Assembly (NCBI GenBank): GCA_030019255.1
Contig: JASEFK010000006.1
Location: forward strand, 154,553-218,552
Reading direction: 5' to 3'
Length of the DNA: 64,000 nt
DNA from: Actinomycetota bacterium
GTDB lineage: Bacteria > Actinomycetota > Geothermincolia > Geothermincolales > RBG-13-55-18
The position numbers were made by a program, and so were the translations under genes. The notes below the pieces were generated by a model. The model was not told the origin of the DNA and made no database searches. It was given only the letters and a program-made list of their open reading frames with translations. Of this stretch, positions 8,609 through 28,174 are shown piece by piece (the stretch's first letter is position 1; each line of letters begins with the position of its first letter).

Positions 8609-8612
8609 TTGC

Positions 8613-8638
8613 GGCGGAAGGGGGGGCGGCCTTCCGCC
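8613..8638 (+). terminator. GC-rich hairpin (9-bp stem GGCGGAAGG/CCTTCCGCC, 8-nt loop) 5 nt after the mutase large-subunit stop, with no U-tract
   Basis: Read directly: 8613-8621 GGCGGAAGG, loop gggggcgg, 8630-8638 CCTTCCGCC. It sits between the mutase large subunit and the radical-SAM gene. Confidence 0.35.
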
Positions 8639-8740
8639 CGGAGGGCCCGGGCGGGGCGGGCGTCCCGCGGACGGGTGCGCGGAGTTCGCGACCCGGGCGC
8701 CGTGCGGACCCCGGACCGGCATCCGGAGGTGGGGGCGGAG

Positions 8741-10840
8741 ATGGACGAAGGGCAACCCTTGCCGGTAACCGAGAGGGCAAGTCCCGGACCTGAAACGGCG
8801 AAGCCAGCGGAGGAGGGCGCGCTCTTCCGCTACCCCCTGCACCCCCCGGCGGAACCGCGGACCGGCGATCCCCCCCTGGTGGAGTTCACCCGAGGCCTGC
8901 TGCGCGACCTCCTCTCCATCCTCCGCCTCCGGAGCGAAGGAAGGGAGGTGGAGGTGGAGGGGTTCCGCTTCCTGGGCCCGGATAAGGCGGTGCATTCCAT
9001 CCATGTCCCGCCCCGCGAGGGAGCGGAGGAACTCGAAGATTCCGGGATGGCCGGCCCATCCGCGCCCCGTCCTCCCCTCCCCGGATGCCGGGGGGAACAC
9101 CCGGAAGGAAAGGGAGACCTGGGGGCCGGCTCCGATGCAGTCCCCAGCCCGGGGAAGGGGCGATTCCCTCCCGGCGCGGTAAAAGGACTTTTGGCAAGGA
9201 AAGAGATCTCAGAGGCACCGGTCCGGGAAGGGATCCAGGGCCTCCCGCCCTTCCTCAACCGGGAGAACGCCGCCCTCTACGAGCCCCGGTTGGAGTTTTT
9301 GGCCCGGCTGCTGGAGAACCTGCTCTCCCTGGTGCAGCTGGAGGCCGGAGGTCGGCCGGTGGAGGTGGACGGATTCCGCCTGCGCCGCCTCTCCGACTGG
9401 GCGGACGCCCCGGTGCCGAGCGCCCAGGACGTAATCCTTCACGCCGCCGACCGCTGCTCTTGCCGTTGCCGGTTCTGCTACCTGCGGGGTTCCCCGCCCA
9501 CCCTGCATTACCATCCCCCCTTCGACCCGGGGGACGACTGGAGGAGGCTGGAGGCCAGGATTCGTCACTACCGCCCCCGGGCGCGGCGGGGGCTCTTCCC
9601 CACCTTCGGTGGCCCGCGGGAGCCGTTCGCTCATCCACAAATTCTCCCCTTGCTCCGATCCCTCCGCGAGACCACCGATGAACCCTTGCGCCTCTCCACC
9701 AACGGATGCGCTCTAAGTCCCGATCTCATAAGCGAACTGGCGAAGCTGGCCCCCCTCTTTCTGGACCTCTCCCTCAACAGCTCCGACCCCGCCCGGCGCT
9801 CCTTCCTCATGGGTGACCCCGAGCCGGGGAGGGCCATCTCCTCCCTGCCCCGCCTGGCGGAGGCGGGCATCCCCTTCGCCGTGACCGTGGTGGCCTGGCC
9901 GGAGCCCTCCCTGGAGGAGATGCTGGAGGACCTGGGAAGAACCTGCCTGTACGCCGCGGGTTGCGGGGCCCGCATGGTACAGGTCAACCTGCCGGGTTAC
10001 TCCCGGTTCTTCTCCCCGCGACCCCTCTTCGATACCGACGAGGTGTGGGGAGCCGTGGTGCGGCGGGTGCGGGAACTGCGCCAGGACATCCCCTGCCCGG
10101 TGGTGGTGAGCCCCGCCCTCTACGAGGAAAACCTCGTCCGGGAACGGAAGAACCTTGCGGAGGTGATAGGGGTGGTGCCCAACTCCCCGGCCGCCTCCTG
10201 GGGGCTTGAGCCGGGAGACGTCATCCTCCGCCTGAACGGGATCAACGTGTTTAACCGCCCCCAGGCCCGCGACCTGCTCACCCTTTTGCAGGAGAGCGGG
10301 AAGGGGAGGATGTCCATCCTGGTCGACCGGGGGGGTAAGAGGGTGGAGCTGGAGGGGGAAAGAAGCCGGTGCCGCTACCCCTTCGATTTTCATACCGGGA
10401 CCCACCTGGGGGTGGTGTTCATGGGGAGCGGTCTGCGCCTCTCCTACCTGCGGGACCTGGAGGACCTCATCCGCTCCTCTGGGGCGCGCCGGGTGCTCTT
10501 TCTCACCTCCCGGCTGGTCCGCCCCACCCTCGAACAGATGCTGCGCGAACGCCCGCTGAGCCTCCCGGAGGGCGTGGAGCTGCACTTGAGCGTGCCGGAG
10601 AACCGCTTCTTCGGGGGAAACATCATGCTCGGCGATCTTTTGGTGGTGCAGGACTTCATCGATCACCTCCGGGAGTGGAGGGAGAGGAAGGGGTTTGCGC
10701 CCCACCTGGTGGTCATACCCTCCTCGCCCTTCCGCCTCAGCGGCTGGGGGAGGGACCTGACCGGTCGGGTGTATCTGGACATCGCCCGGGAGACCGGGAT
10801 GCGGGTGGAACTCCTGGAATGCGAGGCGGTCATGGACTGA
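8741..10840 (+). CDS. radical SAM enzyme with internal PDZ domain (DUF512-like radical-SAM/PDZ family), inserted between the mutase subunits
   Basis: CxxxCxxC radical-SAM cluster motif C-SCR-C-RF-C at about 9455-9478 (HAADRCSCRCRFCYLRG). PDZ-like segment EVIGVVPNSPAASWGLEPGDVILRLNGINVFNRPQARDLLTLLQESGKGRMSILVDRGGKRV (about 10150-10330). GGAGGTG RBS 9 nt before ATG 8741. The listed ORF start 8609 (TTG) would add a 44-codon Arg/Gly-rich extension overlapping the hairpin, which is probably not translated. Confidence 0.75.
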   Translation: MDEGQPLPVTERASPGPETAKPAEEGALFRYPLHPPAEPRTGDPPLVEFTRGLLRDLLSILRLRSEGREVEVEGFRFLGPDKAVHSIHVPPREGAEELEDSGMAGPSAPRPPLPGCRGEHPEGKGDLGAGSDAVPSPGKGRFPPGAVKGLLARKEISEAPVREGIQGLPPFLNRENAALYEPRLEFLARLLENLLSLVQLEAGGRPVEVDGFRLRRLSDWADAPVPSAQDVILHAADRCSCRCRFCYLRGSPPTLHYHPPFDPGDDWRRLEARIRHYRPRARRGLFPTFGGPREPFAHPQILPLLRSLRETTDEPLRLSTNGCALSPDLISELAKLAPLFLDLSLNSSDPARRSFLMGDPEPGRAISSLPRLAEAGIPFAVTVVAWPEPSLEEMLEDLGRTCLYAAGCGARMVQVNLPGYSRFFSPRPLFDTDEVWGAVVRRVRELRQDIPCPVVVSPALYEENLVRERKNLAEVIGVVPNSPAASWGLEPGDVILRLNGINVFNRPQARDLLTLLQESGKGRMSILVDRGGKRVELEGERSRCRYPFDFHTGTHLGVVFMGSGLRLSYLRDLEDLIRSSGARRVLFLTSRLVRPTLEQMLRERPLSLPEGVELHLSVPENRFFGGNIMLGDLLVVQDFIDHLREWRERKGFAPHLVVIPSSPFRLSGWGRDLTGRVYLDIARETGMRVELLECEAVMD

Positions 10841-10936
10841 GGGGAAGGTGGCCATCCGGAAGACCGAAAGGGATGGGACTAGGTGATGGACAGAGCGTCA
10901 GGAGCGCGAAAAGGTGAAGGACAAGGGAGGCAGGAA

Positions 10937-11353
10937 ATGGCATCGAAGACGGAGGGCAAGGTCATCCGGGTACTTATCGCCAAGCCCGGTCTTGACGGGC
11001 ACGACCAGGGAGCCAAGGTCATCGCCTACGGCCTCAAGGACGAGGGGTTCGAGGTCATCTACACCGGCCTGAGGCGCACCCCGGAGGAGATCGTCAACGC
11101 GGCCGTGGACGAGGACGTGGACGTCATCGGCCTCTCCATCCTCTCCGGGGCTCACCTGAGCATTGCGCGGCGTGTCATGTCCCTTCTCCGGGAAAAGGGC
11201 GTGGAGGACAAGATGGTCCTGGTGGGAGGCATCATCCCTCCCGAGGACATCCCCAAGCTCAAGGAGATGGGCGTGGCCGAGGTCTTCGTCTCCGGGACCT
11301 ATATCTCCCAGGTGGCGGAATTCATCCGCTCCCGGTTGGGTGTCTCTTCCTGA
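10937..11353 (+). CDS. cobalamin-binding small subunit of an acyl-CoA mutase (B12-binding Rossmann domain)
   Basis: [73 protein letters not shown]... contains the DxHxxG B12 lower-ligand motif (LDGHDQG) and the MCM small-subunit fold. AGGGAGG RBS before ATG 10937. Confidence 0.9.
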
Positions 11354-11401
11354 GGCAACCCCGGTTATCTGCACCAGAGGCGGCGTGAGTCGGACAGTGC
11401 C

Positions 11402-12763
11402 TCAACCCTGGTAGGCACGCACCAGCCTATTCACGTGCTCCAGATTCTCCAGATCCCGCAACATCTCCAAGGTGGAATCGGCGACCCGGTAGCTCAAAAC
11501 GCTCCCCACGCATTCGCGGTATTTATCGTAGATCTGCTCCTCGCTCATGGGATTGCCGGGTTCGCCGAGGGGCCTTTCGGCCTTCCCCACCGCTTTCCCG
11601 CCGGACTTCAGGTGCACTACCACCTCGGAGGCGAAAGGGCTAGTGATCTCCCCTTCCAGGTCCTGCCAGTCGAAGCGGCGTATCACATGCACTATCGGCT
11701 CCGAGGTGACCACCTGGTCCCTGAACTGCCCCACTCCCACCTTGCCCCAAAGCAGGGCGGCGGCCACGCAGAACTCCAGGCTAAACTTTCCCTCCGTGCC
11801 CGTCTTCGGCTCGTGGTAGACGAGCACCGATCGCAACCAGGAGGGCACCCGGCACTCCACCCTCTCCACCTCGGAAGCGTCGATATTTCCCATCTTCTTC
11901 CATTCCTCCCTGGCCGCCAGGGCGGCGTCGATAGCGCCCTGGGGGCCGCGGCAGCAGGGATAGGGCTTGTAGGAGAGACCGGGGTCGATGAGCTCATAGG
12001 GCTCTCCGAGGGTCCCGGGTAGCTCCCCCGCTTTCTCCAGGTCGGAAGTGAAGACCCGGGCGAATCCGTTCTCCCCGTAGAGAGCATCCGGGTTGGCGGT
12101 GAACCCCCGGGAGGCCAGCTGGGCGGCCATAATCCCGTTCATGGCCGCGACTCCGGCGTGGAGGGGCTTGGTCATGGTTCCGAAGTTAGCCCGGATGCCC
12201 GTGGCCAGGGAGCAGGAGATGCCTAGGGCATGGACCATCCTTTCCTCGGCGAGCCGCAGGAGCTTGCCGCAGGAGGCGGCGGCGCCCAGGACCCCCAGGG
12301 TACTGGTATGGTGCCAGCCCAGCATGTAGGAGTTCCCGCCCAGGGCCGCTCCGACCTTGGCTGCTACCTCCAGGCCGGCCACGTAGGCCAGTAGGCAGTC
12401 CCTTCCCGGGGACTCCAGAACCTCCCCCAGGGCCAACACGGCCGGGACCAGGGCCACGGAAGGATGGCCCATCATGCGGAAACTGACGTCGTCGTAATCC
12501 AGGGCGTGGGCGGCTGTCCCGTTGGCCAGGGCAGCCCAGGGTGCCGCGCTTTTCTTGAAACCGTAGAAGAGGGTGGCTTCACCCTTTGCACACATGGAAT
12601 CCACCCACTCGGCGGCGATGCGTGAACTCTCATCCTCCAGGCCGGCTATGGTGACCCCCAGGCAATCGATGAACGGGAGCTTGGCCGCCTCCACCACCTC
12701 TCCCGGCAAGTCCTCGTACTTCAGGCCACAGACGAACTTCCCCACTTCCAAGAGCTCGTTCAT
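11402..12763 (-). CDS. MmgE/PrpD-family protein (2-methylcitrate dehydratase / cis-aconitate decarboxylase superfamily)
   Basis: Minus-strand translation MNELLEVGKFVCGLKYEDLPGEVVEAAKLPFIDCLGVTIAGLEDE...HALDYDDV...GHPSVALVPAVLALGE...TKPLHAG... is typical of PrpD/MmgE. An AAGGGGGG RBS 6 nt upstream supports the ATG at 12763. The listed ORF start 13102 adds about 113 junk codons. Confidence 0.8.
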   Translation of the reverse strand: MNELLEVGKFVCGLKYEDLPGEVVEAAKLPFIDCLGVTIAGLEDESSRIAAEWVDSMCAKGEATLFYGFKKSAAPWAALANGTAAHALDYDDVSFRMMGHPSVALVPAVLALGEVLESPGRDCLLAYVAGLEVAAKVGAALGGNSYMLGWHHTSTLGVLGAAASCGKLLRLAEERMVHALGISCSLATGIRANFGTMTKPLHAGVAAMNGIMAAQLASRGFTANPDALYGENGFARVFTSDLEKAGELPGTLGEPYELIDPGLSYKPYPCCRGPQGAIDAALAAREEWKKMGNIDASEVERVECRVPSWLRSVLVYHEPKTGTEGKFSLEFCVAAALLWGKVGVGQFRDQVVTSEPIVHVIRRFDWQDLEGEITSPFASEVVVHLKSGGKAVGKAERPLGEPGNPMSEEQIYDKYRECVGSVLSYRVADSTLEMLRDLENLEHVNRLVRAYQG

Positions 12764-13099
12764 TTTCGACCCCCCTTGTTCGTTTTTCATACCCTTAACC
12801 GGTATCAACCCGTCCACTTCCCGGCTCCACCCCCGTTGACGCCCCGGGGTTCCGGGGCTGGCCCACGGGAGGGTATACCGGGTACCGCTCACGCATCCAT
12901 GCCCCTTTTCAGATCGCCTCTCGCCCGAAGAAGCCCCCGTCAAACCCCGGATCACCGTAACGGTAGAGGAAGCCGACTCCCGCCCTTTCGAACCGTGGCT
13001 CAACCAATGGTATCCTTTCCACTCCCCTCCGGAAAAGACCAGCAGCCGGAGTGAGGCCACCACGGTTATCGATATGAAACCGAAGCCCAGCCGACACGA

Positions 13100-13330
13100 C
13101 AATTATGCACCATGAACTTAACCTTCAATTTTCCTGATGATATCAAAGATACCAACGGGCGTAAAGAAGGGGTTCATGTTTCAAATTTTTTCTTTATTTA
13201 AGCCAGATATAAAAATTCTGTCGGCGCATCTGCGCATTAATTATTTTAGGATTGTTGTACTTTCCTACTTTACATATAGTGAACTTTCCTCCATAATTAT
13301 TCGCGCGGGCTGACGGACGACAACGGGCGG
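13100..13330. promoter_or_regulatory. AT-rich divergent promoter island between the PrpD-family gene (-) and the acyl-CoA ligase gene (+)
   Basis: About 230 bp at roughly 30% GC inside a ~67% GC genome (…caaattttttctttatttaagccagatataaaaattctg…ttattttaggattgttgtactttcctactttacatatagtgaactttcc…). The genes on each side diverge from it. Confidence 0.5.
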
Positions 13331-13480
13331 CTGCTAAATTCGTCTTGGCGACCGTGTGAGGAACTTCCTTGAGGACTTCGCCGAACCATTTTCCGCAGCC
13401 ATCGTCGCCCACTTATTCGCATTCTCGAAAGAAAGGTTCCGCGGCCCGGGGCTCAGGGTGAAGCACGGGTATGAACGGGG

Positions 13481-15031
13481 GTGACAACGATGAACGTGGG
13501 CAACTGGGCCACCAAGCGGGCGCTCTTCCCGCTCACCAGGGACAAGACGGCCTTCATCAGCGGTGACCGCTCCCTTACCTACACGGAGTTCAACCACCGT
13601 GTTAATCAAGTGGCCAACGGCTTACTGGAGGCGGGCCTCAAGAAGGGCGAGCGGGTGGCCGCCCTCTTCTTCAACAGCATAGAGTTCATGGAGGTGTACT
13701 TCGCCTGCGCCAAGGCGGGGTTCATCTTCATCCCCCTCAACTTCCGCCTCACGCCCCAGGAGCTGAACGATATATTCACCGACACCAATCCCCGGGCCTT
13801 CTTCTTCCACCCCGAGTTCGCGGGCACGGTGGGACAGCTGCGGGAACTCTACCGCGAACCGATAGAGGTTTTGGCCACCGCCGGGGAGCCAGTGCCGGAG
13901 TTCGCCTCCCCTTACGAGGAGTGGCTCTCGGAATTCGGGGAGGAGGAGCCCGCGGTCCACGAGCCCCCGGGCATGGAGGACCCCCAGATGATCATGTACA
14001 CCTCGGGAACCACCGGGCGGGCCAAGGGGGCCGTGCTCCCCCACCGCAAGACCTTCTGGAACACCTTCAACGACACCCTGGAGCTGCTCTTCGACATGGA
14101 GGCCGTATCTCTGGTCTCCATACCCCTGTTCCACTCCGGGGGCCTGAACATCATCACCATGCCCACCTTCTACATAGGGGGCACCACGATCTTCCAGAGG
14201 TTCTGGAACCCCGAGGAGGCCCTGCGCCTCATCGAGCGCCACCGGGTCACCCACTTCGGGGCCGTGCCCACCATGCTCCAGATGATGCTGGACGTTCCCG
14301 ACTTTTCCCGCTACGACCTGAGCTCCCTCAAGGGGGTGGGGGTGGGAGGAGCCCCCGCCTCCCGGGAGCTTTTGGACCGCATCCTGGAGCGGATGAAGGT
14401 GCCCCACCTCATCCAGGTCTTCGGGTGCACGGAGACCTCCATCGTCCTCTCCTGCTCCAACATGGAAAAGATCGGCAGCGCCGGCATCCCCATGTTCCAC
14501 GCCGAGGTCCGGGTGCTCAAGGAGGACGGCACGGAGGTGGTACCGGGATCCGGCGAGGTGGGGGAGATATGCACCCGGGGCCCCTACGTCATGCTCGGCT
14601 ACTGGAACCTCCCCGAGGAGACCGCCGAGGCCATGAAGGACGGGTGGTTCCACTACGGGGATCTGGCCACCGTGGACGAGGACGGGTACGTATATATCGT
14701 GGACCGCAAGAAGGACATGATCATCTCCGGGGGGGAGAACATCTACCCCGCGGAGGTGGAGAAGGTGCTCGCCGAGCACCCCAAGGTGAGGGACGTGGCG
14801 GTCATCGGCATGCCGGACGAGAAGTGGGGGGAGGTGGGCCACGCCCTGGTGCTCCTGGAGGACCCCGAGGACCCCCTGAGCCTGGAGGAGATGGAGGCCT
14901 TCTGTGCGGGGAAGCTGGCCCGTTACAAGATACCTAAAAAGATCACCTTCGTGGATGCCATCCCCCGCACCCTCACCGGCAAGATATTGAAGAAGGAACT
15001 GCGCAGGCTCTACGGCGGGGGCCGGGATTGA
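13481..15031 (+). CDS. AMP-forming acyl-CoA synthetase / ligase (ANL superfamily)
   Basis: AMP-binding P-loop MYTSGTTGRAKGAVLPH, plus the GYWN...ET, GDLAT...DEDGYVYIVDRKKDMIISGGENIYP and TLTGKILKKELR motifs. 516 aa. Confidence 0.9.
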   Translation: MTTMNVGNWATKRALFPLTRDKTAFISGDRSLTYTEFNHRVNQVANGLLEAGLKKGERVAALFFNSIEFMEVYFACAKAGFIFIPLNFRLTPQELNDIFTDTNPRAFFFHPEFAGTVGQLRELYREPIEVLATAGEPVPEFASPYEEWLSEFGEEEPAVHEPPGMEDPQMIMYTSGTTGRAKGAVLPHRKTFWNTFNDTLELLFDMEAVSLVSIPLFHSGGLNIITMPTFYIGGTTIFQRFWNPEEALRLIERHRVTHFGAVPTMLQMMLDVPDFSRYDLSSLKGVGVGGAPASRELLDRILERMKVPHLIQVFGCTETSIVLSCSNMEKIGSAGIPMFHAEVRVLKEDGTEVVPGSGEVGEICTRGPYVMLGYWNLPEETAEAMKDGWFHYGDLATVDEDGYVYIVDRKKDMIISGGENIYPAEVEKVLAEHPKVRDVAVIGMPDEKWGEVGHALVLLEDPEDPLSLEEMEAFCAGKLARYKIPKKITFVDAIPRTLTGKILKKELRRLYGGGRD

Positions 15032-15290
15032 GACCGCGGGAGGGAAGCCTCCCCGCCCCGGAGGGAGGCCCTGGACCGTGTTTTCCGGGGGGATCCCGCT
15101 CCCCTTGGCCAAGGGTAAGGAGGCCCCCGCCCTTCGGCCCGGGCCCTGTGCGACCGCGCCGGTGGAGGCGGCCGCCCCGGGCGGAACGTCCTCCAACGGG
15201 GAAGGGAGATGACCCGTTTAAGGAGAAAAAGTCAACGGCTTGTCCTGGAAGGAGAAGGCCAAAGGCCTTGGGACGTGAAGGGAGGTCCCC

Positions 15291-16091
15291 ATGAACCAAG
15301 AAGAGGAGCTCCTGGTGGAGGTGAGGGAGCCCCTGGCCTTCCTCACCATCAACCGGCCGGAGCGCCGGAACGCCCTCTCCGTCTCCCTCCTCGTCTCCCT
15401 GGCCCAGGCCCTCCAGGACCTGGCCGAGAAGGGAACGGTGCGCTGCGCCGTGCTGCGGGGGGCGGGGGACCGGGCCTTCTCCGCGGGCATGGACCTCACC
15501 GCCATCCCCGAGGGTCTCCCCGCGGAGGTCCAGGAGCGCATCCAATCCCAGGGCCCCCTGCAGTACGGCCTGGAGGCCATCGAGGAGTGCCCCTTCCCGG
15601 TCATCGCCATGATCCGCGGCTACTGCGTGGGGGCGGGGTGCGAGACCAGCATGGCCTGCGACCTCCGGGTGGGGGCGGAGGACTGCCGCATGGGGATGCC
15701 CCCCGCGCGCCTGGGCATCGTCTATCCCCCCGAGGGCCTGCACCGCTTCCTGCGCACCATCGGCCTGGCCGCCACCCGGAAACTCTTCCTCACCGCAGAG
15801 CTCTTCGGTGCCCACGAGGCCTACCAGATGGGCATGCTGGACTACCTGGTCCCCGTCCCGGAGCTGGAGGCCTTCACCGAGGATCTGGCCCGGCGCATAG
15901 CCTCCAACGCCCCCCTCTCCATCTCCGGGCACAAGCGCATGCTGCGCATGCTCACCCACCCCCTTCCCCTGGCTGAGGAGGAGCGCCGGGAGGCCGATGC
16001 CATCATGGCGCGGGCCCTGGCCAGCGAGGACGCCCGGGAGGGCATCGCCGCCTTCCGCGAGAAGAGGGACCCGGTGTTCAGGGGTAAATAA
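15291..16091 (+). CDS. enoyl-CoA hydratase/isomerase (crotonase fold)
   Basis: LTINRPERRNALS...LRGAGDRAFSAGMDL...IAMIRGYCVGAGCE... show the classic crotonase oxyanion and catalytic segments. GGGAGG RBS. Confidence 0.85.
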   Translation: MNQEEELLVEVREPLAFLTINRPERRNALSVSLLVSLAQALQDLAEKGTVRCAVLRGAGDRAFSAGMDLTAIPEGLPAEVQERIQSQGPLQYGLEAIEECPFPVIAMIRGYCVGAGCETSMACDLRVGAEDCRMGMPPARLGIVYPPEGLHRFLRTIGLAATRKLFLTAELFGAHEAYQMGMLDYLVPVPELEAFTEDLARRIASNAPLSISGHKRMLRMLTHPLPLAEEERREADAIMARALASEDAREGIAAFREKRDPVFRGK

Positions 16092-16263
16092 GGGCCTTTC
16101 TCCCGCGGACTTGACCTCCAGTGGAGCAACCTGAACGAGACCCGGAAGGCTCGTTCCCCTAACCGCTCGTCGCTTACGGAGATGACCCGAGACGGCGCAT
16201 GGCAGCGGAATGCCGAGCCGGGAAAGGCAGTTGAAGGATTTCAAAAAACCCCTTGAAAAATAT

Positions 16264-16279
16264 GTTCACTTTTACTAAA
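16264..16279. promoter_or_regulatory. 16-nt motif GTTCACTTTTACTAAA in the AT-rich island upstream of the GRE operon
   Basis: Identical to the reverse complement of 6588-6603, and 15/16 identical to 24126-24141. Confidence 0.5.
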
Positions 16280-16333
16280 ATAAGCCTCAAGATGATTGCT
16301 GTTATTAAGGCATAATAAGAAATATTAATAATT

Positions 16334-16349
16334 TATTACTATAGTAATA
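16334..16349. promoter_or_regulatory. perfect 16-bp palindrome TATTACTATAGTAATA (candidate operator) upstream of the GRE operon
   Basis: Read directly. It is its own reverse complement. It lies in the 16240-16400 AT-rich island, about 400 nt upstream of the GRE start. Confidence 0.45.
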
Positions 16350-16748
16350 GTGTAAATTGCTTACTTAAACGCTTTTGAATTTTGACTAACTAGGATTCGG
16401 AAAAACGTCTGTACCACCGCCCGATTATTCCGCAGCAGGATTCGCCCCACGTGATAAGCAGCCATCGAGGGGGTGAGCTTTCCCCGTTTGAGGAACCGTG
16501 AAAGGCGAATCGGCCGATGAGCTCCGCAGGAGCGTGAAAGAGAAGGTGCGCGGTTTTCGTCTCAAATAGGGGGCTCGTGAATGGAAAGGCGTGCCATTCG
16601 CGAGGGCAACGGGCACGGACATCCGGCCGGAGAGGCTGTCGGGAAGGGAGGGATGAAAACCCGAAAGGAAAGCAGTGGGATTTTCTCGGTTTGAAGGAAA
16701 GAACGTTGCTTTCACAAGCGGGGGGCAACCGGAAGAAGAAGGGGGTAG

Positions 16749-19241
16749 ATGATGTCGGCGGTTGAGATGCGAACCATCGAGGAGATCGAAAAGAGCGGTC
16801 AGTGGTGGTGGTGGGCGGAACACAAGAGGTCGAAACGCCTGGATTACCTGCGCAAGGCGGTATGGAAAAAGGGGGCCAAGGGCTCCGGTTACCAGCCGGG
16901 AGTGAAGGTGGACCTGGAGAGGGCCGTCCTCTTCACCGAGGCCTTCAAGGCCAACGAGCACGACTCCCTGCGCATGCGCTATGCCAAGGCTCTGGCCAAC
17001 GTGTTCGACAACATCACCATCTTTATCCAGGACCACGCCCAGATCATGGGCTACCTGGGTTCCCGGCCCCACACCATCGTGTGGCACCCGGAGATCCTCT
17101 TTCTGCTCAACGAGGACCTGTATAACGACCGCACGGTCATACCTGAGCCTGTGGATGAGAACCTGAAGCTCATCCGGGAGCTCTGCGACTACTGGAACCC
17201 CCAGACGGCGGGGGCCAAGGTCTTCAACCTGGTCCCACCGGAGGAGATCGTCAAGCTCCTAACCGGGGTTATCGGTTGGGGGCTTCCCATCTCCCGCATC
17301 GGCTACGCCACCAAGCAGTGGGACTACATGTTCCGCTTGGGTCTGGAAGGCATCATAGCTGAAATAGACGAGCGTATTAAGGAGGCCGAGGAACGCATTT
17401 ACAACAAGGTGCCCGATCCCGAGGACCTCCCCTACTACGAGAAGCTTGACGTCTGGAAGTCCATGAAGGTGGTGCTGGAGGCGGTCATCCGCTGGGCACG
17501 CCGCTACAGCCGCCTGGCCAGGATCATCGCCGAGCACTTCGAGACCGACCCCCAGCGCAAAGAGGAGCTCCTGCGCATCGCCGAGGTCTGCTGGAAAGTG
17601 CCAGCCAAGCCCCCGGAGCACCTGCACGAGTCCCTGCAGTTCGACCATTTCATCCAGATTGCCTGCCGCTACGAGGCCTGCGAGGGCGCCTGGCCGGCCC
17701 GCCCCGATTACTGGCACGGTCCCTTCTACGACAAGGACGTCAACCGGGACAAGATCCTTACCCGGGAGGAGGCCCTGGATCTCACCGGAGAGTTCCTCAT
17801 CCGCTGCTACGAGGTGGGATGGTTCTGGTTGATGCTGGCCCGCGACACCCTGCAGGGCATCACCGGGACCTGGGTATGGACAATCGGCGGGGTTAACGAG
17901 GACGGGACCGACGCCTGTAACGACATGACCGACTGCCTGCTGGAAGCGGCCCGCCTGGTACGGGTGGCCAATCCCACCTTCGCCTTCCGTTACCATCCCA
18001 ACGTGAGGATGCAGACCCTGCGCCAGGTCTTCGAGTGCATCCGGCAGGGATTGGGATATCCTTCCATGCGCAACGATCCCATCCTCATCACCAACGCCAT
18101 GCATTGGCACAGGCATCCGTTGCGGGAGGCGCGGCGCTGGGTGCACCAGGCCTGCATGTCCCCCTGCCCGGATACCAAACTGGGATGCCAGCCCTTCCGC
18201 ATGGCCAACGCCACCATCATCGCCGCCAAGGCCATCGAGTATGCCCTATTCGACGGGTACGACAACGTGCTCCAGATGCAGTTCGGACCCCATACCGGGG
18301 ATGCCACAAAGTTCGAGACCTTCGAGGAGCTCTACCAGGCTTGGTACACGCAGATCAAATGGATGATGGACACCCTGGTAAAACTGACTAACGGCGGCCG
18401 CTTCATGGCCCAGTTCCTGGACCCCCGCCCCCTGCTCTCCGGACTCTACGAGCGCTGCGTGGAGCTGGGCGTGGACTCCTCCCATCCCTCGGAGCGCGGC
18501 AATTCCTGGATTACCTTCTTCGCCTGGATGGAGACCGGGGACAGCCTGGCCGCGGTGAAGAAGCTGGTTTTCGACGAGAAGAAGTACACCATGGCCCAGC
18601 TCATCGAGGCTCTCAAGGCCAACTGGGAGGGCTACGAGGAGATGCGCATGGACTTCGTGCGCGCTCCCAAGTGGGGCAACGACGACGACTACGTGGACCA
18701 GATCCACATCCGCTGCCACCGCGACGTGGCCAGGCACTCCTGGGAAATAATGGATCCCACCGGGAATCCCTGGCCTCCGCTGCCGGAGAACATCGCCGCC
18801 TACGTGACCAACGCCACCAAGGTTTGGGCGCTGCCCAACGGGAGGAGGCTTGGCGACACCCTCTACGACGGCGGGTGCTCCCCCGGGGCGGGGCTGGACA
18901 AGAAAGGTCCCACCGCCGTCCTGCGCTCGGTGGCCAAGATCGACCACATCGGGGACGTGCGAGCCACCCTGCTCAACCAGCGCCTGTCCCCCCAGCAGCT
19001 GGCCGGCGAGAAGGGCTTCCACATCTGGCACTCCTACATCAAGACCTGGGCCGAACTGGGTATCGACCACGTGCAGTTCAACATGGTGGACAACGAAACC
19101 CTGAAGGCGGCCCAGAGGGAACCGGAGAAGTATCCCGAGCTCATCGTGCGCATCGCCGGTTACAGCGCCCATTTCGTGGACCTGAACAAGAAGACCCAGG
19201 ACACCATCATCGCCCGCAACGTGCAGGAACTGGGCGTATGA
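16749..19241 (+). CDS. glycyl radical enzyme, pyruvate formate-lyase family; X-succinate-synthase-like (fumarate-adding, AssA/BssA-type) catalytic subunit, inferred
   Basis: 830 aa. C-terminal glycyl-radical motif RIAGYSAHFVDLNKKTQDTIIARNV (about 19155). Candidate thiyl Cys loop QACMSPCPDTKLG (about 18151-18165). The fumarate-adding subtype is inferred from context: two small 4-Cys subunits, ferredoxin-domain activases, and adjacent CoA-ligase, mutase and carboxylase genes. Confidence 0.8.
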   Translation: MMSAVEMRTIEEIEKSGQWWWWAEHKRSKRLDYLRKAVWKKGAKGSGYQPGVKVDLERAVLFTEAFKANEHDSLRMRYAKALANVFDNITIFIQDHAQIMGYLGSRPHTIVWHPEILFLLNEDLYNDRTVIPEPVDENLKLIRELCDYWNPQTAGAKVFNLVPPEEIVKLLTGVIGWGLPISRIGYATKQWDYMFRLGLEGIIAEIDERIKEAEERIYNKVPDPEDLPYYEKLDVWKSMKVVLEAVIRWARRYSRLARIIAEHFETDPQRKEELLRIAEVCWKVPAKPPEHLHESLQFDHFIQIACRYEACEGAWPARPDYWHGPFYDKDVNRDKILTREEALDLTGEFLIRCYEVGWFWLMLARDTLQGITGTWVWTIGGVNEDGTDACNDMTDCLLEAARLVRVANPTFAFRYHPNVRMQTLRQVFECIRQGLGYPSMRNDPILITNAMHWHRHPLREARRWVHQACMSPCPDTKLGCQPFRMANATIIAAKAIEYALFDGYDNVLQMQFGPHTGDATKFETFEELYQAWYTQIKWMMDTLVKLTNGGRFMAQFLDPRPLLSGLYERCVELGVDSSHPSERGNSWITFFAWMETGDSLAAVKKLVFDEKKYTMAQLIEALKANWEGYEEMRMDFVRAPKWGNDDDYVDQIHIRCHRDVARHSWEIMDPTGNPWPPLPENIAAYVTNATKVWALPNGRRLGDTLYDGGCSPGAGLDKKGPTAVLRSVAKIDHIGDVRATLLNQRLSPQQLAGEKGFHIWHSYIKTWAELGIDHVQFNMVDNETLKAAQREPEKYPELIVRIAGYSAHFVDLNKKTQDTIIARNVQELGV

Positions 19242-19305
19242 GGGAGATCGCGTTGAAACCGCCGGTGCTACCACCAGCGGGGTCGCTTGAAAAGGGGGTA
19301 GAGCG

Positions 19306-19605
19306 ATGAGCGACTGGGAACAGCTCCGCCAGCAGTGGCTGCAGGGGGCCATCTCCAAGGGGCGCCGTGATATGCCGGAGAAGGCCTGCGGCATTTGCAG
19401 TAACTTCCGGCAGAATTCGGCCTCCGCGGCCGGTGATGGTTTCTGCACGGCCATCAAGATGGGGGAGAAGAACAAGCCGGTCTTCGACAATACCGATGCC
19501 GCCGACTGCCCGCACTTCCGGGAGATCGACCGCGTGCGGACGGACACCAGTGAGTTCATGTGGGATCCCCAGTTCCGGCCGCAGAGGCAGATCCAGGAGA
19601 AGTAG
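19306..19605 (+). CDS. small 4-Cys subunit, candidate FeS-binding beta-like subunit of the X-succinate-synthase-type GRE
   Basis: 99 aa directly after the GRE gene, with an AAGGGGG RBS. Cys ligand pattern C28-x2-C31-x15-C47-x20-C68, comparable to the HiPIP-like small subunits of benzylsuccinate synthase. It is a paralog-like pattern match to 22139-22294. Confidence 0.55.
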   Translation: MSDWEQLRQQWLQGAISKGRRDMPEKACGICSNFRQNSASAAGDGFCTAIKMGEKNKPVFDNTDAADCPHFREIDRVRTDTSEFMWDPQFRPQRQIQEK

Positions 19606-19623
19606 GAGCAGCAACCGGAGAAG

Positions 19624-19851
19624 ATGGTCACCTGTTCCAGGTGCGGAAGGTCCGGCTCTTTAGCCGAGTTCGCCTACGTGGGGCAGGCCGTGGAGGTGGG
19701 ACCCGTTTCCCTGAGGCGGTGCCCTGCCTGCGGTGAACTCCTGGTCGTGGACGAACTGGAGCTGGAACGGGATGGATCATCATCTCCCGGTCCCTGGGGA
19801 CTGAGCGACATCTGGGGTAGAAAATTTACCTGTAAGAACGGGGAGGTGTGA
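19624..19851 (+). CDS. zinc-ribbon mini-protein, paralog 1 (CxxCG...EF-Y...CPxCG family)
   Basis: 75 aa: MVTCSRCGRSGSLAEFAYVGQAVEVGPVSLRRCPACGELLVVDELE... with two CxxC knuckles. It shares the pattern TC-x-RCG-xxG-x2-AEF-x-[YH]-...-R-x-CP-x-CG with the ORFs at 19855 and 22633. Confidence 0.55.
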   Translation: MVTCSRCGRSGSLAEFAYVGQAVEVGPVSLRRCPACGELLVVDELELERDGSSSPGPWGLSDIWGRKFTCKNGEV

Positions 19852-19854
19852 ACT

Positions 19855-20034
19855 GTGGTCAAGTGCGACAACTGCGGATACCAAGGGGTGAAGTCGGAGT
19901 TCCGTTACCTCTACAACACCACCCTGGACGCGGAGACAGCATACCGCGAATGTCCGCAATGCTACGCCTGGGTGGTGGTCAACGAGCTGCAGGAGGAAAA
20001 GGCCGAAAAGGAGCTCCAGAAGGGAAAAGCCTGA
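19855..20034 (+). CDS. zinc-ribbon mini-protein, paralog 2 (absent from the ORF track; 59 aa, GTG start)
   Basis: GTG at 19855, 4 nt after the stop of paralog 1. Translation VVKCDNCGYQGVKSEFRYLYNTTLDAETAYRECPQCYAWVVVNELQEEKAEKELQKGKA*. It has the same CxxCG...EF-Y...CPxC pattern. The alternate-frame ORF 19848..20234 is low-complexity. Confidence 0.45.
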   Translation: MVKCDNCGYQGVKSEFRYLYNTTLDAETAYRECPQCYAWVVVNELQEEKAEKELQKGKA

Positions 20035-20118
20035 TTCCCCCGTGGGAGTTCACGCTTTTTCCTGTGACGCTTTCCGGCTTCCCCGGCGTGTCGAGAGAAA
20101 CGGAAAAGGAGTCCTTTC

Positions 20119-21057
20119 ATGCCCGAGCAGGTATTAATCACCAACATCCAGCGCTATTCCATAAACGACGGGCCGGGAATCCGCACCACCGTCTTCCTCA
20201 AGGGCTGCAAGCTCAACTGCGCGTGGTGCCATAACCCGGAGTGTATCCATTTTTACCCGGAGATCTACTGGAAGCCCTCGCTCTGCCGGCAGTGCGGGAT
20301 ATGCTTCGACGCCTGCCCGAGGGGTGCCATACAGCCGCCTATTCCGGTAACGGGGGAAGAAGACAACGAGCACTATTACAAGATCGACCTATCTCTATGC
20401 GACCACTGCATGGAGTGCGTGGAGGCCTGCTTCTACGGCGCCCTGGTGAGGGTGGGAGAGCCGAAGACGGTGGAGGAGATACTCGACGAGGTGGAGAGGG
20501 ACATGCCCTTCTACCTGAACTCGGGAGGAGGCATGACGGTAACGGGAGGCGAGCCCACTGCCTTCCCCGAGTTCACCCTCGAGCTCCTGCGCAGAGCCAA
20601 GGAACGAGGGATTCACAACTGTCTGGACACCAGCGGGTTCTGCGCCTGGGAAATCCTGGATTCCCTGCGCCCCTACGTGGACATCTTCCTCTACGACATC
20701 AAGTGCATGAGCGCCAAGCTGCACGTCATGCGCACCGGGGTGAACAACTCGCCCATCCTGGCCAACCTGCGCCGACTGGTGGAGGTGGGAGCCGAGGTCA
20801 TCGTGCGCGTCCCGGTGATTCCCGGCTTCAACGATTCACCGGAGCACATGGAGAGGGTGGCCGATTTCCTCGCCGACCTGGGGTCCTCCATAGTTCGCGT
20901 GGACCTACTCCCCTTTCACAACTGGTGCCAGGACAAGTATCGCTGGCTGGGAAGGGAATGGGAATACCGGGACGTGGAAAGCCTGGCCGCGAGCGAGATA
21001 AGCGACCTGCAGGACATCCTCAAGGAACGCGGGCTGGCGACCACCATCGGAGGATGA
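20119..21057 (+). CDS. glycyl-radical enzyme activating enzyme (radical SAM) with a ferredoxin-like 2x[4Fe-4S] insertion, copy 1
   Basis: N-terminal IRTTVFLKGCKLNCAWCHNPE (the GRE-activase CxxxCxxC). Insertion with two Cx2Cx2Cx3CP motifs (LCRQCGICFDACPRG; LCDHCMECVEACFYG), typical of non-PFL activases such as BssD, CutD and GD-AE. This is followed by the SAM-binding G-rich GGGMTVTGGEP. Confidence 0.85.
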   Translation: MPEQVLITNIQRYSINDGPGIRTTVFLKGCKLNCAWCHNPECIHFYPEIYWKPSLCRQCGICFDACPRGAIQPPIPVTGEEDNEHYYKIDLSLCDHCMECVEACFYGALVRVGEPKTVEEILDEVERDMPFYLNSGGGMTVTGGEPTAFPEFTLELLRRAKERGIHNCLDTSGFCAWEILDSLRPYVDIFLYDIKCMSAKLHVMRTGVNNSPILANLRRLVEVGAEVIVRVPVIPGFNDSPEHMERVADFLADLGSSIVRVDLLPFHNWCQDKYRWLGREWEYRDVESLAASEISDLQDILKERGLATTIGG

Positions 21058-21066
21058 GGCGGTAAG

Positions 21067-21996
21067 ATGGGAAGCGGCGAAACCTCGGGCTACGTCAACG
21101 ACATCCAGTTCTATTCCCTGAGCGACGGGCCGGGGATACGTACCACCGTCTTCCTCAAGGGATGCCTACTCAACTGCCGCTGGTGCCACAACCCTGAAGG
21201 CCACCGCCGATTCCCAGAGGTCCTCCCCTATCGCAACAACTGCACCGGGTGCGGTAAATGCCTGGAGGTGTGCCCCTCCGGGGCCATCGAGATGGAAGGC
21301 CCCTGCCTGCCCCGTATCCGCCGTGAACGCTGCATCGACTGCTTTCGCTGCGCCGAGGCCTGCCCGGAACAGGCCCTTGTGGTGTGGGGAAAGCTGATGA
21401 CCGTGGACCAGGTATTGGCGGAGGTGGAGAAGGACAAGCCCTTCTACAAGCATTCCGGCGGAGGGCTCACGGTTTCCGGCGGAGAACCCCTGGCCCAGCC
21501 GGAATTCACTCATGATCTCCTGGCGGAGGCCAGGGCAAGGGGAATGAACACCGCGCTGGATACGTGCGGGTTCGCCCCCTGGGAAGTGCTGGAAAAGGTG
21601 CTGCGCGTCGCCGACCACGTGCTCCTGGACCTCAAGCACATGGATTCCGCGGCGCACCGCGCCTACTGTGGGGCTCCCAACGATCTCATCCTTGCCAACG
21701 CCCGGCGCCTGGCGGAAGAGGCCCGCGAGCTGCGCTTCCGGATCCCCCTCATCCCGGGCTTCAACGACGGGGAGGAAAACCTCGCCCGCACGGCGGATTT
21801 CATTCGCGGGTTGTGCCGCAATGGGAAGGAATGCGAGGTGGACATCCTGCCTTATCACCCTTACGCCGGAGCCAAGTACCGCATCTTCGGACTGGAATAT
21901 CCCTTCCCGCGGGGAGAGGGATACCCCGAGGAAAAGCTGTGCGGAATTGTGAAGATCTTCACCTCCCGGCGTCTCACGGTCACCGTGGGAGGTTGA
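21067..21996 (+). CDS. glycyl-radical enzyme activating enzyme with a ferredoxin-like insertion, copy 2 (tandem paralog)
   Basis: IRTTVFLKGCLLNCRWCHNPE; ferredoxin motifs CTGCGKCLEVCPSG and CIDCFRCAEACPEQ; GGGLTVSGGEP. Collinear with copy 1. Confidence 0.85.
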   Translation: MGSGETSGYVNDIQFYSLSDGPGIRTTVFLKGCLLNCRWCHNPEGHRRFPEVLPYRNNCTGCGKCLEVCPSGAIEMEGPCLPRIRRERCIDCFRCAEACPEQALVVWGKLMTVDQVLAEVEKDKPFYKHSGGGLTVSGGEPLAQPEFTHDLLAEARARGMNTALDTCGFAPWEVLEKVLRVADHVLLDLKHMDSAAHRAYCGAPNDLILANARRLAEEARELRFRIPLIPGFNDGEENLARTADFIRGLCRNGKECEVDILPYHPYAGAKYRIFGLEYPFPRGEGYPEEKLCGIVKIFTSRRLTVTVGG

Positions 21997-22138
21997 AATC
22001 ATGGAGGGTCGTTGGCCAAGGCGGAGGCCGGGCACCGGCAAGGCGGAACGGGCGAGCGTGGAACGATGAGAGCGTTCGGGAATTCGCGATGGAGATCGAC
22101 ACTTGGTTGAACGCTGCAATGGAGCAGGAGGTGCGACC

Positions 22139-22294
22139 ATGAGCTGTGGAGATTGCAAGTGGTTCTTCCCCCTGGAAGAAGACCCCAGCAGGGGAGACTG
22201 CGTGCGGCGCGAATCGGACGGAAAGAGCGAGTACTACACGGCCAAGCCCCATAACGCCGACGACGCCGAGTGCGAGAACTTCGAGGCCCGCTGA
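22139..22294 (+). CDS. small 4-Cys subunit, candidate gamma-like subunit of the X-succinate-synthase-type GRE
   Basis: 51 aa from ATG 22139, with a strong GGAGCAGGAGGTG RBS. Sequence MSCGDCKWFFPLEEDPSRGDCVRRESDGKSEYYTAKPHNADDAECENFEAR. Cys pattern C3-x2-C6-x14-C21-x23-C45, parallel to the 99-aa protein at 19306. The listed ORF start 22103 is a TTG extension. Confidence 0.5.
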   Translation: MSCGDCKWFFPLEEDPSRGDCVRRESDGKSEYYTAKPHNADDAECENFEAR

Positions 22295-22632
22295 GGGCGC
22301 GCAACGAACGGCGGGGGTCTTGCAACCCGTGGCCCGCTCCCGGGAACCTCGACGCATGCGTTGGTGACACGATAGTTGGCGGGTGGAAGAGGGTAACAAC
22401 GCTGCCTTGCGCCATCCCGCAAGGTATTGACCGGTATGTTCTTGCGTAGTAACGTCCGCCGCCGCAAGAGCCTCCCGGCCTGGATGTAATGCACAAGTTC
22501 AGCTCCGGCGGCGGTAAGCAAGAATCGGTCCGCGAACGCAAGGGGGGAGACGGGTTGACCCAGCTTGATCCACGCGAAAGGAAAAATGGAACATACCGGG
22601 TCGTGTAACGGCAAATGACAAGGAGAAAAGCC

Positions 22633-22980
22633 ATGCTCATTACCTGTGATCGCTGCGGCTATGAAGGCGAGGGCGCGGAATTCCGGCATATCGGCAACGT
22701 GATGTGCTGCGGCCCGCTCATCTTCCGGGAGTGCCCGAGCTGCGGCAACCCGGTGATTTGCGACCGGCAGGAGATGCGCGAGGAGATCGAGGACACGGCG
22801 CGGGAGCTATCATGTCGGGTGGAGTCGGCCATCGCTTCCGGAGACGCCGCTCGAGCCAGGGCGCTGCTTAAGGACCTGTCCTTCCTCAATCAGTGCCTCA
22901 ACCTGGAAGCCATCGACGAGTACATCCGCCTGAAAAAGAGGGAGATTCGCTTCCTGGAAAGTACTTCCACTCCGCCATGA
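22633..22980 (+). CDS. zinc-ribbon mini-protein, paralog 3 (with a C-terminal helical extension)
   Basis: AAGGAGA RBS before ATG 22633. Sequence MLITCDRCGYEGEGAEFRHIGNVMCCGPLIFRECPSCGNPVICDRQE... has the same signature as 19624 and 19855. Confidence 0.55.
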   Translation: MLITCDRCGYEGEGAEFRHIGNVMCCGPLIFRECPSCGNPVICDRQEMREEIEDTARELSCRVESAIASGDAARARALLKDLSFLNQCLNLEAIDEYIRLKKREIRFLESTSTPP

Positions 22981-23181
22981 TGCCGAAGTCGTGGCAGGCC
23001 ATAGCGGAGGGAGAAACCGACCCGGGTTCAAACCACTCCCGCCGTCGCGAAGCTCGTTGGCCGGAATCCCTCTTACCGACACATGGGTCCTGGGCAAGGG
23101 AGAAATCTCGTTGCCGGGCTTGGCAAGTTCGCAGGTAGTGATTTTCCTGTTTCCGCGCATCCGGCGTTGCGGACCGTGCTC

Positions 23182-23967
23182 TCAGTCCGGCAGCGGGGCG
23201 AGATCGCCCGCGGACACCGGGAGGACCTTCCCCCCCACCTCGAGCAACAGGTTGCCCAGCTCGTCGACCCCCACCAGAAGGCCCTCGAGTAGCGCGCCCC
23301 TCCTTTCCGGCGCCACCTCCCCTTCCTCCCGACCTCCGCGCCTCAGGCCGCATATGACAAAATCTTCCACCACTACCTGCCGCCCGCGGTAAGCCAGGTT
23401 GGCGCGGTATTCCTCCACCAGGTTTCTCCCCTCCTCCCGCAGCCGATTTTCCATTTCGCCGAGAAGGGCGTGCAGAAGTTCCTCGACGCCCCAGAGCCTG
23501 CCTTCCTCCAACAGCAGGGAGGTGGGCGGAAGCCGAGCCGGAAAATTCAACTCCTCCGGCAGGTACCCGACGTTTAAACCCAGGCCCACGATGAGGAAAT
23601 GGTCCCCGTCCCGGCGGAAGGACTCGGTGAGCACGCCCCCCACCTTTCTGTCCCCGTAGACCAGGTCGTTGGGCCACTTGCAGAGGGGCCCCGCACCTCC
23701 CAGCCTCCTCACCGCCGCCCGGGCCGAGAGCGCCGCCAGCGCCGCGGCACGGAAGGGCTCCACGTCCCGGAGTGCCAGGCTCACCAGAAGGCTCTTTCCG
23801 GGTCGGTCCAGCCAACTCCGGTCCATCCTCCCGCGTCCCGCCGTCTGGTGGACCGCGGTCACCACCAGCCCTTCCGATGCCCCCCGGGCCAGGAGCCTCC
23901 TGGCCTCCAGGTTGGTGGAGTCCAGGCTCTCGTAACGACGCACGTCCCAATGGATATCACTGCCCAA
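23182..23967 (-). CDS. birA: biotin--[acetyl-CoA-carboxylase] ligase, group I BirA without an N-terminal HTH
   Basis: BPL catalytic domain ...LDSTNLEARRL...VVTAVHQTAGRGRMDRSWLDRPGKSLLVSLAL... (GRGRxxRxW biotin-binding loop). The listed ORF start 24234 runs into the bioY coding region. The in-frame TTG at 23967 is preceded by GGAGGT and gives a 262-aa group I enzyme. Confidence 0.7.
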   Translation of the reverse strand: MGSDIHWDVRRYESLDSTNLEARRLLARGASEGLVVTAVHQTAGRGRMDRSWLDRPGKSLLVSLALRDVEPFRAAALAALSARAAVRRLGGAGPLCKWPNDLVYGDRKVGGVLTESFRRDGDHFLIVGLGLNVGYLPEELNFPARLPPTSLLLEEGRLWGVEELLHALLGEMENRLREEGRNLVEEYRANLAYRGRQVVVEDFVICGLRRGGREEGEVAPERRGALLEGLLVGVDELGNLLLEVGGKVLPVSAGDLAPLPD

Positions 23968-24125
23968 GGCGACGAGACCTCCGCTGGGTAGTGGCCCGAC
24001 CTTCCCGCAATCAGCACGGTTGCGGGCTGGAAGGGCGGCTGCTCCGCCACGCTTCACGCTGCCGGGGTGCGCTTCCCGCTTCGTTTCGAGAGCCGGGGCG
24101 ACCCTCGAAACCGATTTTTCATAAA

Positions 24126-24141
24126 GTTCACCTTTACTAAA
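24126..24141. promoter_or_regulatory. third copy (15/16) of the motif GTTCACCTTTACTAAA, upstream of the bioY-carboxylase operon, next to a near-consensus -35
   Basis: Read directly. TTGACA at 24162-24167 lies about 20 nt downstream of the motif, and the bioY ATG is at 24220. Confidence 0.45.
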
Positions 24142-26829: not shown

Positions 26830-26833
26830 AAAC

Positions 26834-28174
<1,341 letters not shown>

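Follow-up and report, generated by a model that had tools for sequence, protein, structure and literature searches.

The window, by which we mean the whole 64-kb stretch of DNA that was analysed, carries an asymmetric 18-bp box that is probably the binding site of one sequence-specific regulator. This regulator would be encoded outside the window, and the box would mark four promoter regions of an alkane pathway. The first of the predicted units is the mutase operon, with the mutase large subunit, a radical-SAM/PDZ protein and a B12-binding subunit. The second is the divergent prpD, CoA-ligase and enoyl-CoA hydratase region, the third the mas/ass operon with a MasD-like enzyme, small subunits and two activases, and the fourth the bioY/pyruvate-carboxylase operon. 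Together, the four units would account for the anaerobic activation of alkanes by fumarate addition and for the downstream processing of the products. The original prediction took the repeat for a shared operator or promoter element that ties such modules into a regulon. This is supported by the conservation of the box at orthologous promoters, by its fixed register and by its co-occurrence with the ass operon.

Results

Occurrence and definition of the box

A recurrent 16-mer with three copies had been claimed for the window. When GTTCACYTTTACTAAA was searched with up to three mismatches, exactly three matches were found in the 64 kb. Two of them are exact, at 6589-6604 on the minus strand and at 16264-16279 on the plus strand, and the third, at 24126-24141 on the plus strand, has a C at position 7. 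The reverse-complement copy had been placed at 6588-6603, which is one base off. The claim that the number of copies is beyond chance was confirmed, since 0.17 matches are expected and none of 100 dinucleotide-preserving shuffles contained three or more. The occurrence of the box is real and its excess over chance is large.

The GC content of the window is 64.2% and not about 67% as first assumed. The copies do lie in AT-rich islands, as described, with the box at the edge of each island (6291-6620, 16201-16450 and 24081-24280; 100-nt minima of 22-40% GC), and an AT-rich tract follows each copy. The relaxed core TNCAC-N6-TAAANT was matched four times in the window, compared with 0.04 expected matches, and all four are in promoter spacers. 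The fourth match, at 13267-13283 on the minus strand, lies in another AT-rich island. The copies had been assigned to the regions upstream of the mutase, the glycyl radical enzyme and the bioY-carboxylase operons. These positions hold, but copy 1 runs opposite to the mutase operon, and the prpD/ligase region has to be added as a fourth. At assA and bioY the box has the orientation of the downstream gene, and at the mutase and the ligase the opposite one.

The core of the box is TTCAC-N6-TAAANT, and its asymmetric, two-part consensus of 18 bp is GTTCACYTTTACTAAANT. Among 15 sites, the positions T2, C4, A5 and T13 to A16 are invariant and form two clusters about one helical turn apart. The asymmetry is identical in every one of these sites. 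A position weight matrix (PWM) was built from the 15 sites and used with a cut-off of 13 bits on the window and about 150 kb of related loci. The hits at or above the cut-off were the box sites described here and one weak inverted copy in the assA leader. Within the window and the related loci scanned, the box is confined to promoter regions. A weak site at 32087-32102 was not counted. It scores below the cut-off and is located inside a TTGACA-N16-TAAACT promoter (about 32087-32112), which precedes the second of two zinc-ribbon genes described below.

The box is a discrete element

In an alignment of the three copies, the similarity stops abruptly at the edges of the box. Local alignment of the flanks, 150-250 nt on either side, gave no similarity above shuffled sequences for any pair (p ≥ 0.085), and the box is absent from the repeat families listed for the window. 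The case that had been named as refuting the prediction, a box that is part of a common repeat element, is thus not what was observed in the window. Extended similarity, a target-site duplication or a partner end, which characterise MITE and IS elements, were not found for the box. A search of the whole window with Rfam at gathering thresholds gave no matches, no tRNAs were found in the window, and no credible small ORFs were seen in the long leaders and spacers. Since the flanks are unrelated and the edges sharp, we regard the box as a discrete element of 16-18 bp and not as a relic of a mobile element or a structured RNA. The reading as a longer repeat or mobile element was rejected for the dissimilar flanks and the lack of a repeat family.

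The genes around the boxes

The gene map was drawn from Pfam scans and from the gene calls of identical public contigs. The sequence of the window is also present in GCA_030024025.1 and in a Logan assembly.

4664-6061, minus strand: PD40 lipoprotein
6845-8608, plus strand: methylmalonyl-CoA-mutase-like large subunit
8609-10840, plus strand: radical-SAM/PDZ protein
10883-11353, plus strand: B12-binding subunit
11402-12763, minus strand: PrpD-family protein
13481-15031, plus strand: acyl-CoA ligase
15291-16091, plus strand: enoyl-CoA hydratase
16749-19241, plus strand: glycyl radical enzyme, followed by small subunits
20119-21996, plus strand: two activases
about 22139-22294, plus strand: BssC-like subunit
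22633-22980, plus strand: MasE-like zinc-ribbon protein of 115 aa
23182-23967, minus strand: biotin-protein ligase of 261 aa with a BPL_LplA_LipB domain only
24220-24822, plus strand: BioY
24916-28174, plus strand: two-subunit pyruvate carboxylase

The glycyl radical enzyme scored 1128 bits to MasD (9o8u_A), compared with 559 bits to benzylsuccinate synthase, and is by homology a MasD-like enzyme, that is, an alkylsuccinate synthase. The region 16749-22980 represents a complete MasD-like operon with the catalytic subunit, small subunits (BssC-like and MasE-like) and two tandem activases. From the likeness to MasD and MasE, the cluster is predicted to encode the alkane fumarate-addition route, which we take to be followed by the downstream CoA ligase, mutase and carboxylase steps. 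The four gene groups are probably used for anaerobic alkane breakdown. The mutase is 95% identical to that of Candidatus Solincola tengchongensis, and the nearest named homologues of BioY are from Actinomycetota. By these protein comparisons, the host, an uncultured hot-spring bacterium, is a Solincola-like actinobacterium.

Three further features of these genes were recorded. The radical-SAM/PDZ gene (8609-10840), which is DUF512-like, lies between the large and the B12-binding subunit of the mutase, and this arrangement is kept in the related loci L132 and L133. The biotin-ligase frame is open through the AT-rich spacer (23968-24234, minus strand) and across the box, giving an ORF of 350 aa. 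In relatives the frame is extended in a comparable but unconserved way, and the gene may be called too long. On the minus strand, two paralogues with an N-terminal zinc ribbon of the CxxC type, each about 380 aa long and not assigned to any family, are encoded at 29345-30496 and 30840-31976. Two or three copies of this gene were present downstream of the carboxylase genes in all relatives examined.

Position of the box in the promoters

The box sites of the window and the promoters at which they lie are as follows.

6587-6604, minus strand: box copy 1, GTTCACTTTTACTAAAGT, PWM score 35.4 bits, inverted relative to the mutase operon
6540-6568, minus strand: predicted sigma-70-like promoter CTGGCA-N17-TAAAAT, 20 nt downstream of box copy 1, directed toward the PD40 lipoprotein gene
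13267-13284, minus strand: box 4a, GTTCACTATATGTAAAGT, in the divergent prpD/CoA-ligase spacer, PWM score 26.0 bits
13243-13260, minus strand: box 4b, GTACAACAATCCTAAAAT, a weak tandem partner 24 nt from 4a, PWM score 20.7 bits
16253-16281, plus strand: assA promoter with the -35 hexamer TTGAAA at 16253-16258, a 17-nt spacer and the -10 hexamer TAAAAT at 16276-16281
16264-16281, plus strand: box copy 2, occupying the spacer and the -10 hexamer of the assA promoter
16334-16355, no strand assigned: second, weaker box in the assA leader, consisting of a palindrome and a 12/16 inverted copy (16340-16355, minus strand), PWM score 16.4 bits
24126-24143, plus strand: box copy 3, GTTCACCTTTACTAAACT, upstream element of the bioY-pycB-pycA promoter
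24162-24191, plus strand: bioY core promoter with TTGACA at 24162-24167, N17 and TACAAAT at 24185-24191; the -35 hexamer begins 20 nt after the box

Copy 1 ends 241 nt upstream of the mutase ATG (6845) on the opposite strand. The distance of 20 nt between this copy and the -35 hexamer of the promoter at 6540-6568 corresponds to the geometry at bioY. The function of this promoter is uncertain because its -10 hexamer is not kept in L133. Between copy 1 and the mutase start codon, we also noted a direct repeat GCTCCCTGGG(A/C)AAT at 6676-6689 and 6760-6773, with the two units 84 nt apart. Copy 2 ends 470 nt upstream of the ATG of the glycyl radical enzyme. About 64 nt downstream of it, the element at 16334-16355 matches a conserved GGTTACTAAA box of the relatives. 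A perfect 16-bp palindrome, TATTACTATAGTAATA, is found there at 16334-16349 and overlaps the weak inverted copy. Copy 3 ends 79 nt upstream of the bioY ATG. It lies 5' of the -35 hexamer and is therefore not transcribed with bioY.

Conservation of the box in related genomes

Scanning genome contigs for the 16-mer gave matches in at least 120 stretches. Among the matches listed, nearly all are single chance hits in AT-rich genomes. The GC-rich loci L064, L069 and L122, also among the matches listed, are orthologous bioY promoters in the divergent biotin-ligase/bioY spacer of related Actinomycetota. Further related loci were obtained by protein look-ups.

At the bioY promoter, the box was found in seven assemblies, the window and six others. 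It is identical at 16 of 16 positions in L064, L069, L129 and L134, and L130 and L135 have a single T-to-C exchange at position 10. All seven promoters show the same order of box, N19-20, TTGACA, N17, TACAAAT, a short leader and ATG. The BioY proteins that were compared with that of the window are only 62-74% identical to it, and no relationship is seen in the DNA around the promoters. Between the box and the divergent biotin-ligase gene, the distance ranges from about 60 to 360 nt. Since the spacing to the -35 hexamer is fixed and that to the ligase gene variable, the box belongs to the bioY promoter, where it spans about -71 to -54. When the architecture of box, N19-20 and TTGACA was used as the query, five hits were obtained in metagenomes; all five were bioY promoters and there were no chance hits.

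The assA leader of about 410-560 nt can be aligned among the window, L129, L130 and L133. Conservation is highest in the block CC(C/T)CTTG(A/C)(A/T)A followed by N5 and the box, so that TTGMWA-N17-TAAAAT is present in all four. The -35 hexamers of L129, L130 and L133 read TTGCAA, TTGAAA and TTGCTA, respectively. L133 also has an inverted 12/16 copy of the box in this leader, at 18946-18961. In L129 (Ch49), a nucleotidyltransferase/HEPN toxin-antitoxin pair lies at 1675-2366, between the hydratase gene and the box-bearing assA promoter.

In the mutase spacer, the inverted box is the sole strongly conserved block between the window and L133; it precedes the mutase ATG by 213 nt in L133 and by 241 nt in the window. 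The prpD/ligase spacer of L133 contains counterparts of 4a, GTTCACTTCATGTAAAGT, and of 4b, GTGCACTTATCCTAAAGT, with the same offset of 24 nt. The box is thus conserved in seven assemblies at bioY, in four at assA, and in two each at the mutase and at the prpD/ligase pair. Assemblies with the box include GCA_030024025.1, GCA_013178005.1, GCA_900175155.1, GCA_964529285.1 and the MAG of Ca. Solincola daggyaiensis with contig JACVJD010000030.1, and GCA_015711935.1 and GCA_015711755.1 are among those without it. As judged from these alignments, it is kept at orthologous promoter sites in a fixed register with the core promoter hexamers, and the flanks have diverged.

The box as a possible promoter or biotin operator

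The position over the assA promoter allows the reading that the box is itself the promoter and is read by the polymerase through a dedicated sigma factor, with TAAANT as the -10 element and GTTCAC as a close upstream element. TAAANT does fit the actinobacterial -10 form TANNNT, and T18 is present in all ten sites of the assA, mutase and prpD types. A conserved -35 hexamer lies 17 nt upstream of TAAAAT at assA, and the AT-rich tract follows each copy. However, a gap of 6 nt between GTTCAC and TAAANT fits no known geometry of the sigma-70 family. Hexamers 16-18 nt apart, as in sigma-70-type promoters, were found with the box at assA only (TTGAAA-N17-TAAAAT). At bioY, the box is outside the core promoter, 19-20 nt upstream of near-consensus hexamers, and T18 is missing in three of the seven copies. 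The sigma-54 promoter (TGGCAC-N5-TTGC) has the same block geometry of 6 + 5 + 5, but its GG is replaced by TT and its GC by AA in all sites. Moreover, the mutase-type box of L133 faces the 3' end of a convergent gene, where there is nothing to transcribe. We consider it quite unlikely that the box is a promoter of this kind.

The bioY copy, which is the most widespread and the best conserved, lies beside the gene of a biotin-protein ligase. The box could therefore be an operator of the biotin regulon, at which a BioQ- or BirA-like biotin sensor controls bioY, with the alkane genes added because their pathway depends on biotin enzymes. The box starts with GTTCA, which is one half of the BioQ palindrome. 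Against this, the TGAAC partner was not found at the expected spacing in any of the seven bioY promoters. The ligase, of class I and about 261 aa long, has no domain for DNA binding, and the open frame that extends it upstream is not kept between genomes. Wherever the contig is long enough, the box-bearing bioY promoter adjoins a glycyl radical enzyme gene or an ass operon, and the box has decayed in the sole relative whose bioY region adjoins no ass operon, S. tengchongensis. A biotin operator is thus an unlikely identity for the box.

A second conserved block, TTTTCC..TACAAATATAACAAACT, is present at bioY at 24176-24205 and spans the -10 hexamer and the start region. Its conservation exceeds what a -10 hexamer alone would need, and it may represent an operator of its own, perhaps one related to biotin. 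As the block is retained in S. tengchongensis, it is a better candidate for the biotin operator than the box.

Genomes and loci without the box

Positions 1-5828 of the window and those from 23234 onward are collinear with S. tengchongensis. The 17.4 kb or so between these points (5829-23233), comprising the mutase operon, prpD, the ligase, the hydratase and mas/ass, are missing from the syntenic site, and the PD40 and biotin-ligase genes are adjacent. The genes from the mutase to the hydratase are located elsewhere in that genome in a single direction, with prpD in the opposite orientation to that in the window. No ass operon was found at either syntenic site. Upstream of the S. tengchongensis mutase the box is absent and the region is non-homologous. 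The bioY box has decayed to GTTCACTATTATTTGA, the -35 hexamer likewise, and the carboxylase genes appear fragmented. This pattern suggests that the box accompanies the ass operon and not simply the bioY or the mutase gene.

No box was found within four mismatches in L003 (88%), L128 (90%), L005 (83%), L004, L126 and Desulfoglaeba (L127); the percentages refer to the assA homologues. In alignments, the upstream regions of L003, L128 and L005 are not homologous to that of the window. An analogous repeated motif was not seen in L003, L004 or L005, and ordinary promoter-like hexamers precede the assA homologues of L003 and L128. From L003, L128 and L005, which have the enzyme but not the box, we conclude that the box reflects the regulatory wiring of one lineage and is not a feature of the enzyme.

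These rearrangements bear on another explanation, by which the copies are sites of recombination or transposition, either termini of a mobile element or a pair of inverted repeats on both sides of the 9.7-kb segment from the mutase to the hydratase. Copies 1 and 2 are perfect inverted repeats around 6605-16263. The gene order of the segment varies among genomes, with prpD inverted relative to S. tengchongensis, and the 17-kb block from 5.8 to 23.2 kb is missing from the syntenic site of that genome. Nevertheless, neither target-site duplications nor extended terminal similarity are seen, and the neighbourhood contains no gene for a transposase or recombinase. At bioY only one copy is present, in a fixed promoter register in seven assemblies, and the boxes are conserved in place where the gene order is the same. 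This explanation is largely refuted, and we regard it as very improbable.

Search for the regulator

Pfam and NCBIfam scans of about 50 ORFs gave no plausible regulator in the window, which agrees with the earlier remark that no regulator gene is evident there. Three candidates were rejected. The biotin ligase has only the BPL_LplA_LipB domain, and its upstream extension is unconserved. The zinc-ribbon protein of 115 aa is MasE-like and is also present in L003, which has no box. An AbrB-type protein (37397-37843) is HgcC-like, lies 13 kb away and has no link to the box. Its gene belongs to the region 36429-37843 on the minus strand, where an AbrB-domain protein matching the HgcAB-associated HgcC family is encoded beside a SAM-dependent methyltransferase. 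No AraC-family gene was found in the window or in the fetched loci. S. tengchongensis has a TetR gene about 1 kb beyond the point corresponding to the left end of the window; that genome is without the box, and L133 is without that gene.

Discussion

A short element that is sharply bounded, conserved, confined to promoters and in a fixed register is best explained as the site of a sequence-specific protein. We infer that such a protein binds the box. At assA, where the box covers the promoter spacer and the -10 hexamer, the bound protein would compete with RNA polymerase and should repress, and this repression might be relieved by an inducer. At bioY, with the box at about -71 to -54, the protein would act from upstream. 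Contact with the polymerase or cooperation with a second site is conceivable here and perhaps also at copy 1. The consistent asymmetry is most economically explained by a reader with two different heads, which could be a monomer with two helix-turn-helix units or a heterodimer. Its effector could be a pathway intermediate or the biotin status of the cell.

Some observations count against the operator reading. The near-identity across 16 positions is unusually strict for the site of a regulator, and the orientation of the box relative to the downstream gene is mixed. Since the box overlaps the core promoter at assA and lies upstream of it at bioY, one simple mode of action does not fit all sites.

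A more far-reaching proposal, which we think fairly unlikely, is that a regulator of an undescribed kind has rewired resident operons (the mutase and bioY-pyruvate carboxylase operons) and an acquired mas/ass island into one alkane regulon. The box would then be a portable module of promoter plus operator that carries its own -10-like TAAANT and was placed in lineage-specific AT-rich islands, which replaced the ancestral promoter regions. If this were true, the box would provide the first experimental handle on the transcriptional control of alkylsuccinate synthase genes.

A literature search for the regulation of native ass/mas genes (Ass/Mas, in any organism) turned up no study. The one paper that this search returned appears to deal with the engineering of a methane biosensor and not with native ass/mas regulation. 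One published description of Candidatus Solincola mentions neither alkanes nor glycyl radical enzymes. The box gives a testable regulon prediction that links the mutase, the prpD/ligase and the pyruvate-carboxylase/biotin-uptake genes to the Mas enzyme. The 18-bp sequence can be used as bait for isolating the regulator and as a marker for recognising functional alkane islands in metagenomes.

Comparison with known systems

Several systems resemble the box in one respect or another. The biotin operators, bioO of BirA and the BioQ sites of Corynebacterium and Mycobacterium, share with it the divergent biotin-ligase/bioY spacer, the actinobacterial host and the sequence GTTCA, which is the BioQ half-site. 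The box differs from them in being non-palindromic and in lying near a ligase without a DNA-binding domain. It also precedes the alkylsuccinate synthase, mutase and CoA-ligase operons and is decayed where bioY adjoins no ass operon. The inverted repeat of bioO, with TGTWAAC-type half-sites about 14-16 bp apart, was absent from all eight aligned bioY upstream regions. The ligase of the window is not of the bifunctional BirA type with an N-terminal winged helix-turn-helix. The BioQ operator is a 13-bp palindrome, TGAAC-N3-GTTCA or GTTAC. Of this, the box has the GTTCA half only; the 8 nt upstream of the box are AT-rich and variable and do not contain TGAAC. No TetR gene was found in the window.

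The Streptomyces PHO box, bound by PhoP, consists of at least two direct 11-nt repeats starting with GTTCACC. The C7 variants of our box match the first unit, but what would be the second (CTAAANN...) is unlike GTTCACC. Compared by eye, none of the sites of sigma-28, ECF sigma factors, IHF, LytTR, GlnR, CRP/FNR and Rex, nor the T7/T3-type promoters, fitted the box.

The two-component systems TdiSR and TutBC of toluene degraders are comparable as pathway-specific transcriptional control of an operon for a hydrocarbon-activating glycyl radical enzyme. These regulators, however, are encoded beside the bss/tut genes and have unrelated sites, and genes of this kind are absent from the window. KstR of the cholesterol pathway is similar in that one conserved operator precedes several operons of one degradative pathway across related genomes. 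The overlap of the box with the core promoter in at least one case would also fit a KstR-type repressor that is released by a pathway intermediate. In contrast to the asymmetric box, KstR-type sites are palindromic and are recognised by TetR dimers, whose gene is known and in most cases lies close by.

The marbox of MarA, SoxS and Rob, which belong to the AraC/XylS family, has the consensus AYnGCACnnWnnRYYAAAYn with GCAC and AAA 8 nt apart. Like the box, it is asymmetric, about 20 bp long and made of two short conserved elements, xCAC and YAAA, which a T-rich spacer sets about one helical turn apart. It also occurs in either orientation and lies either upstream of the -35 hexamer (around -62) or over the core promoter. 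One regulator ties many marbox promoters together, as is predicted for the box. The two differ in that position 3 of the box is never the G of GCAC in 15 sites (it is T in 12), in that CAC and AAA are separated by 7 nt and not 8, and in that the box sites are far less degenerate. In the 15 aligned sites, the sequence is accordingly not that of a marbox.

In its logic, the box resembles most closely the asymmetric sites of the marbox type and the single-operator catabolic regulons of Actinobacteria. Its sequence is that of neither, and it is not that of the BirA, BioQ, PhoP or sigma-54 sites. In conclusion, we view the box as a predicted operator, a familiar kind of feature, that would define a small regulon.
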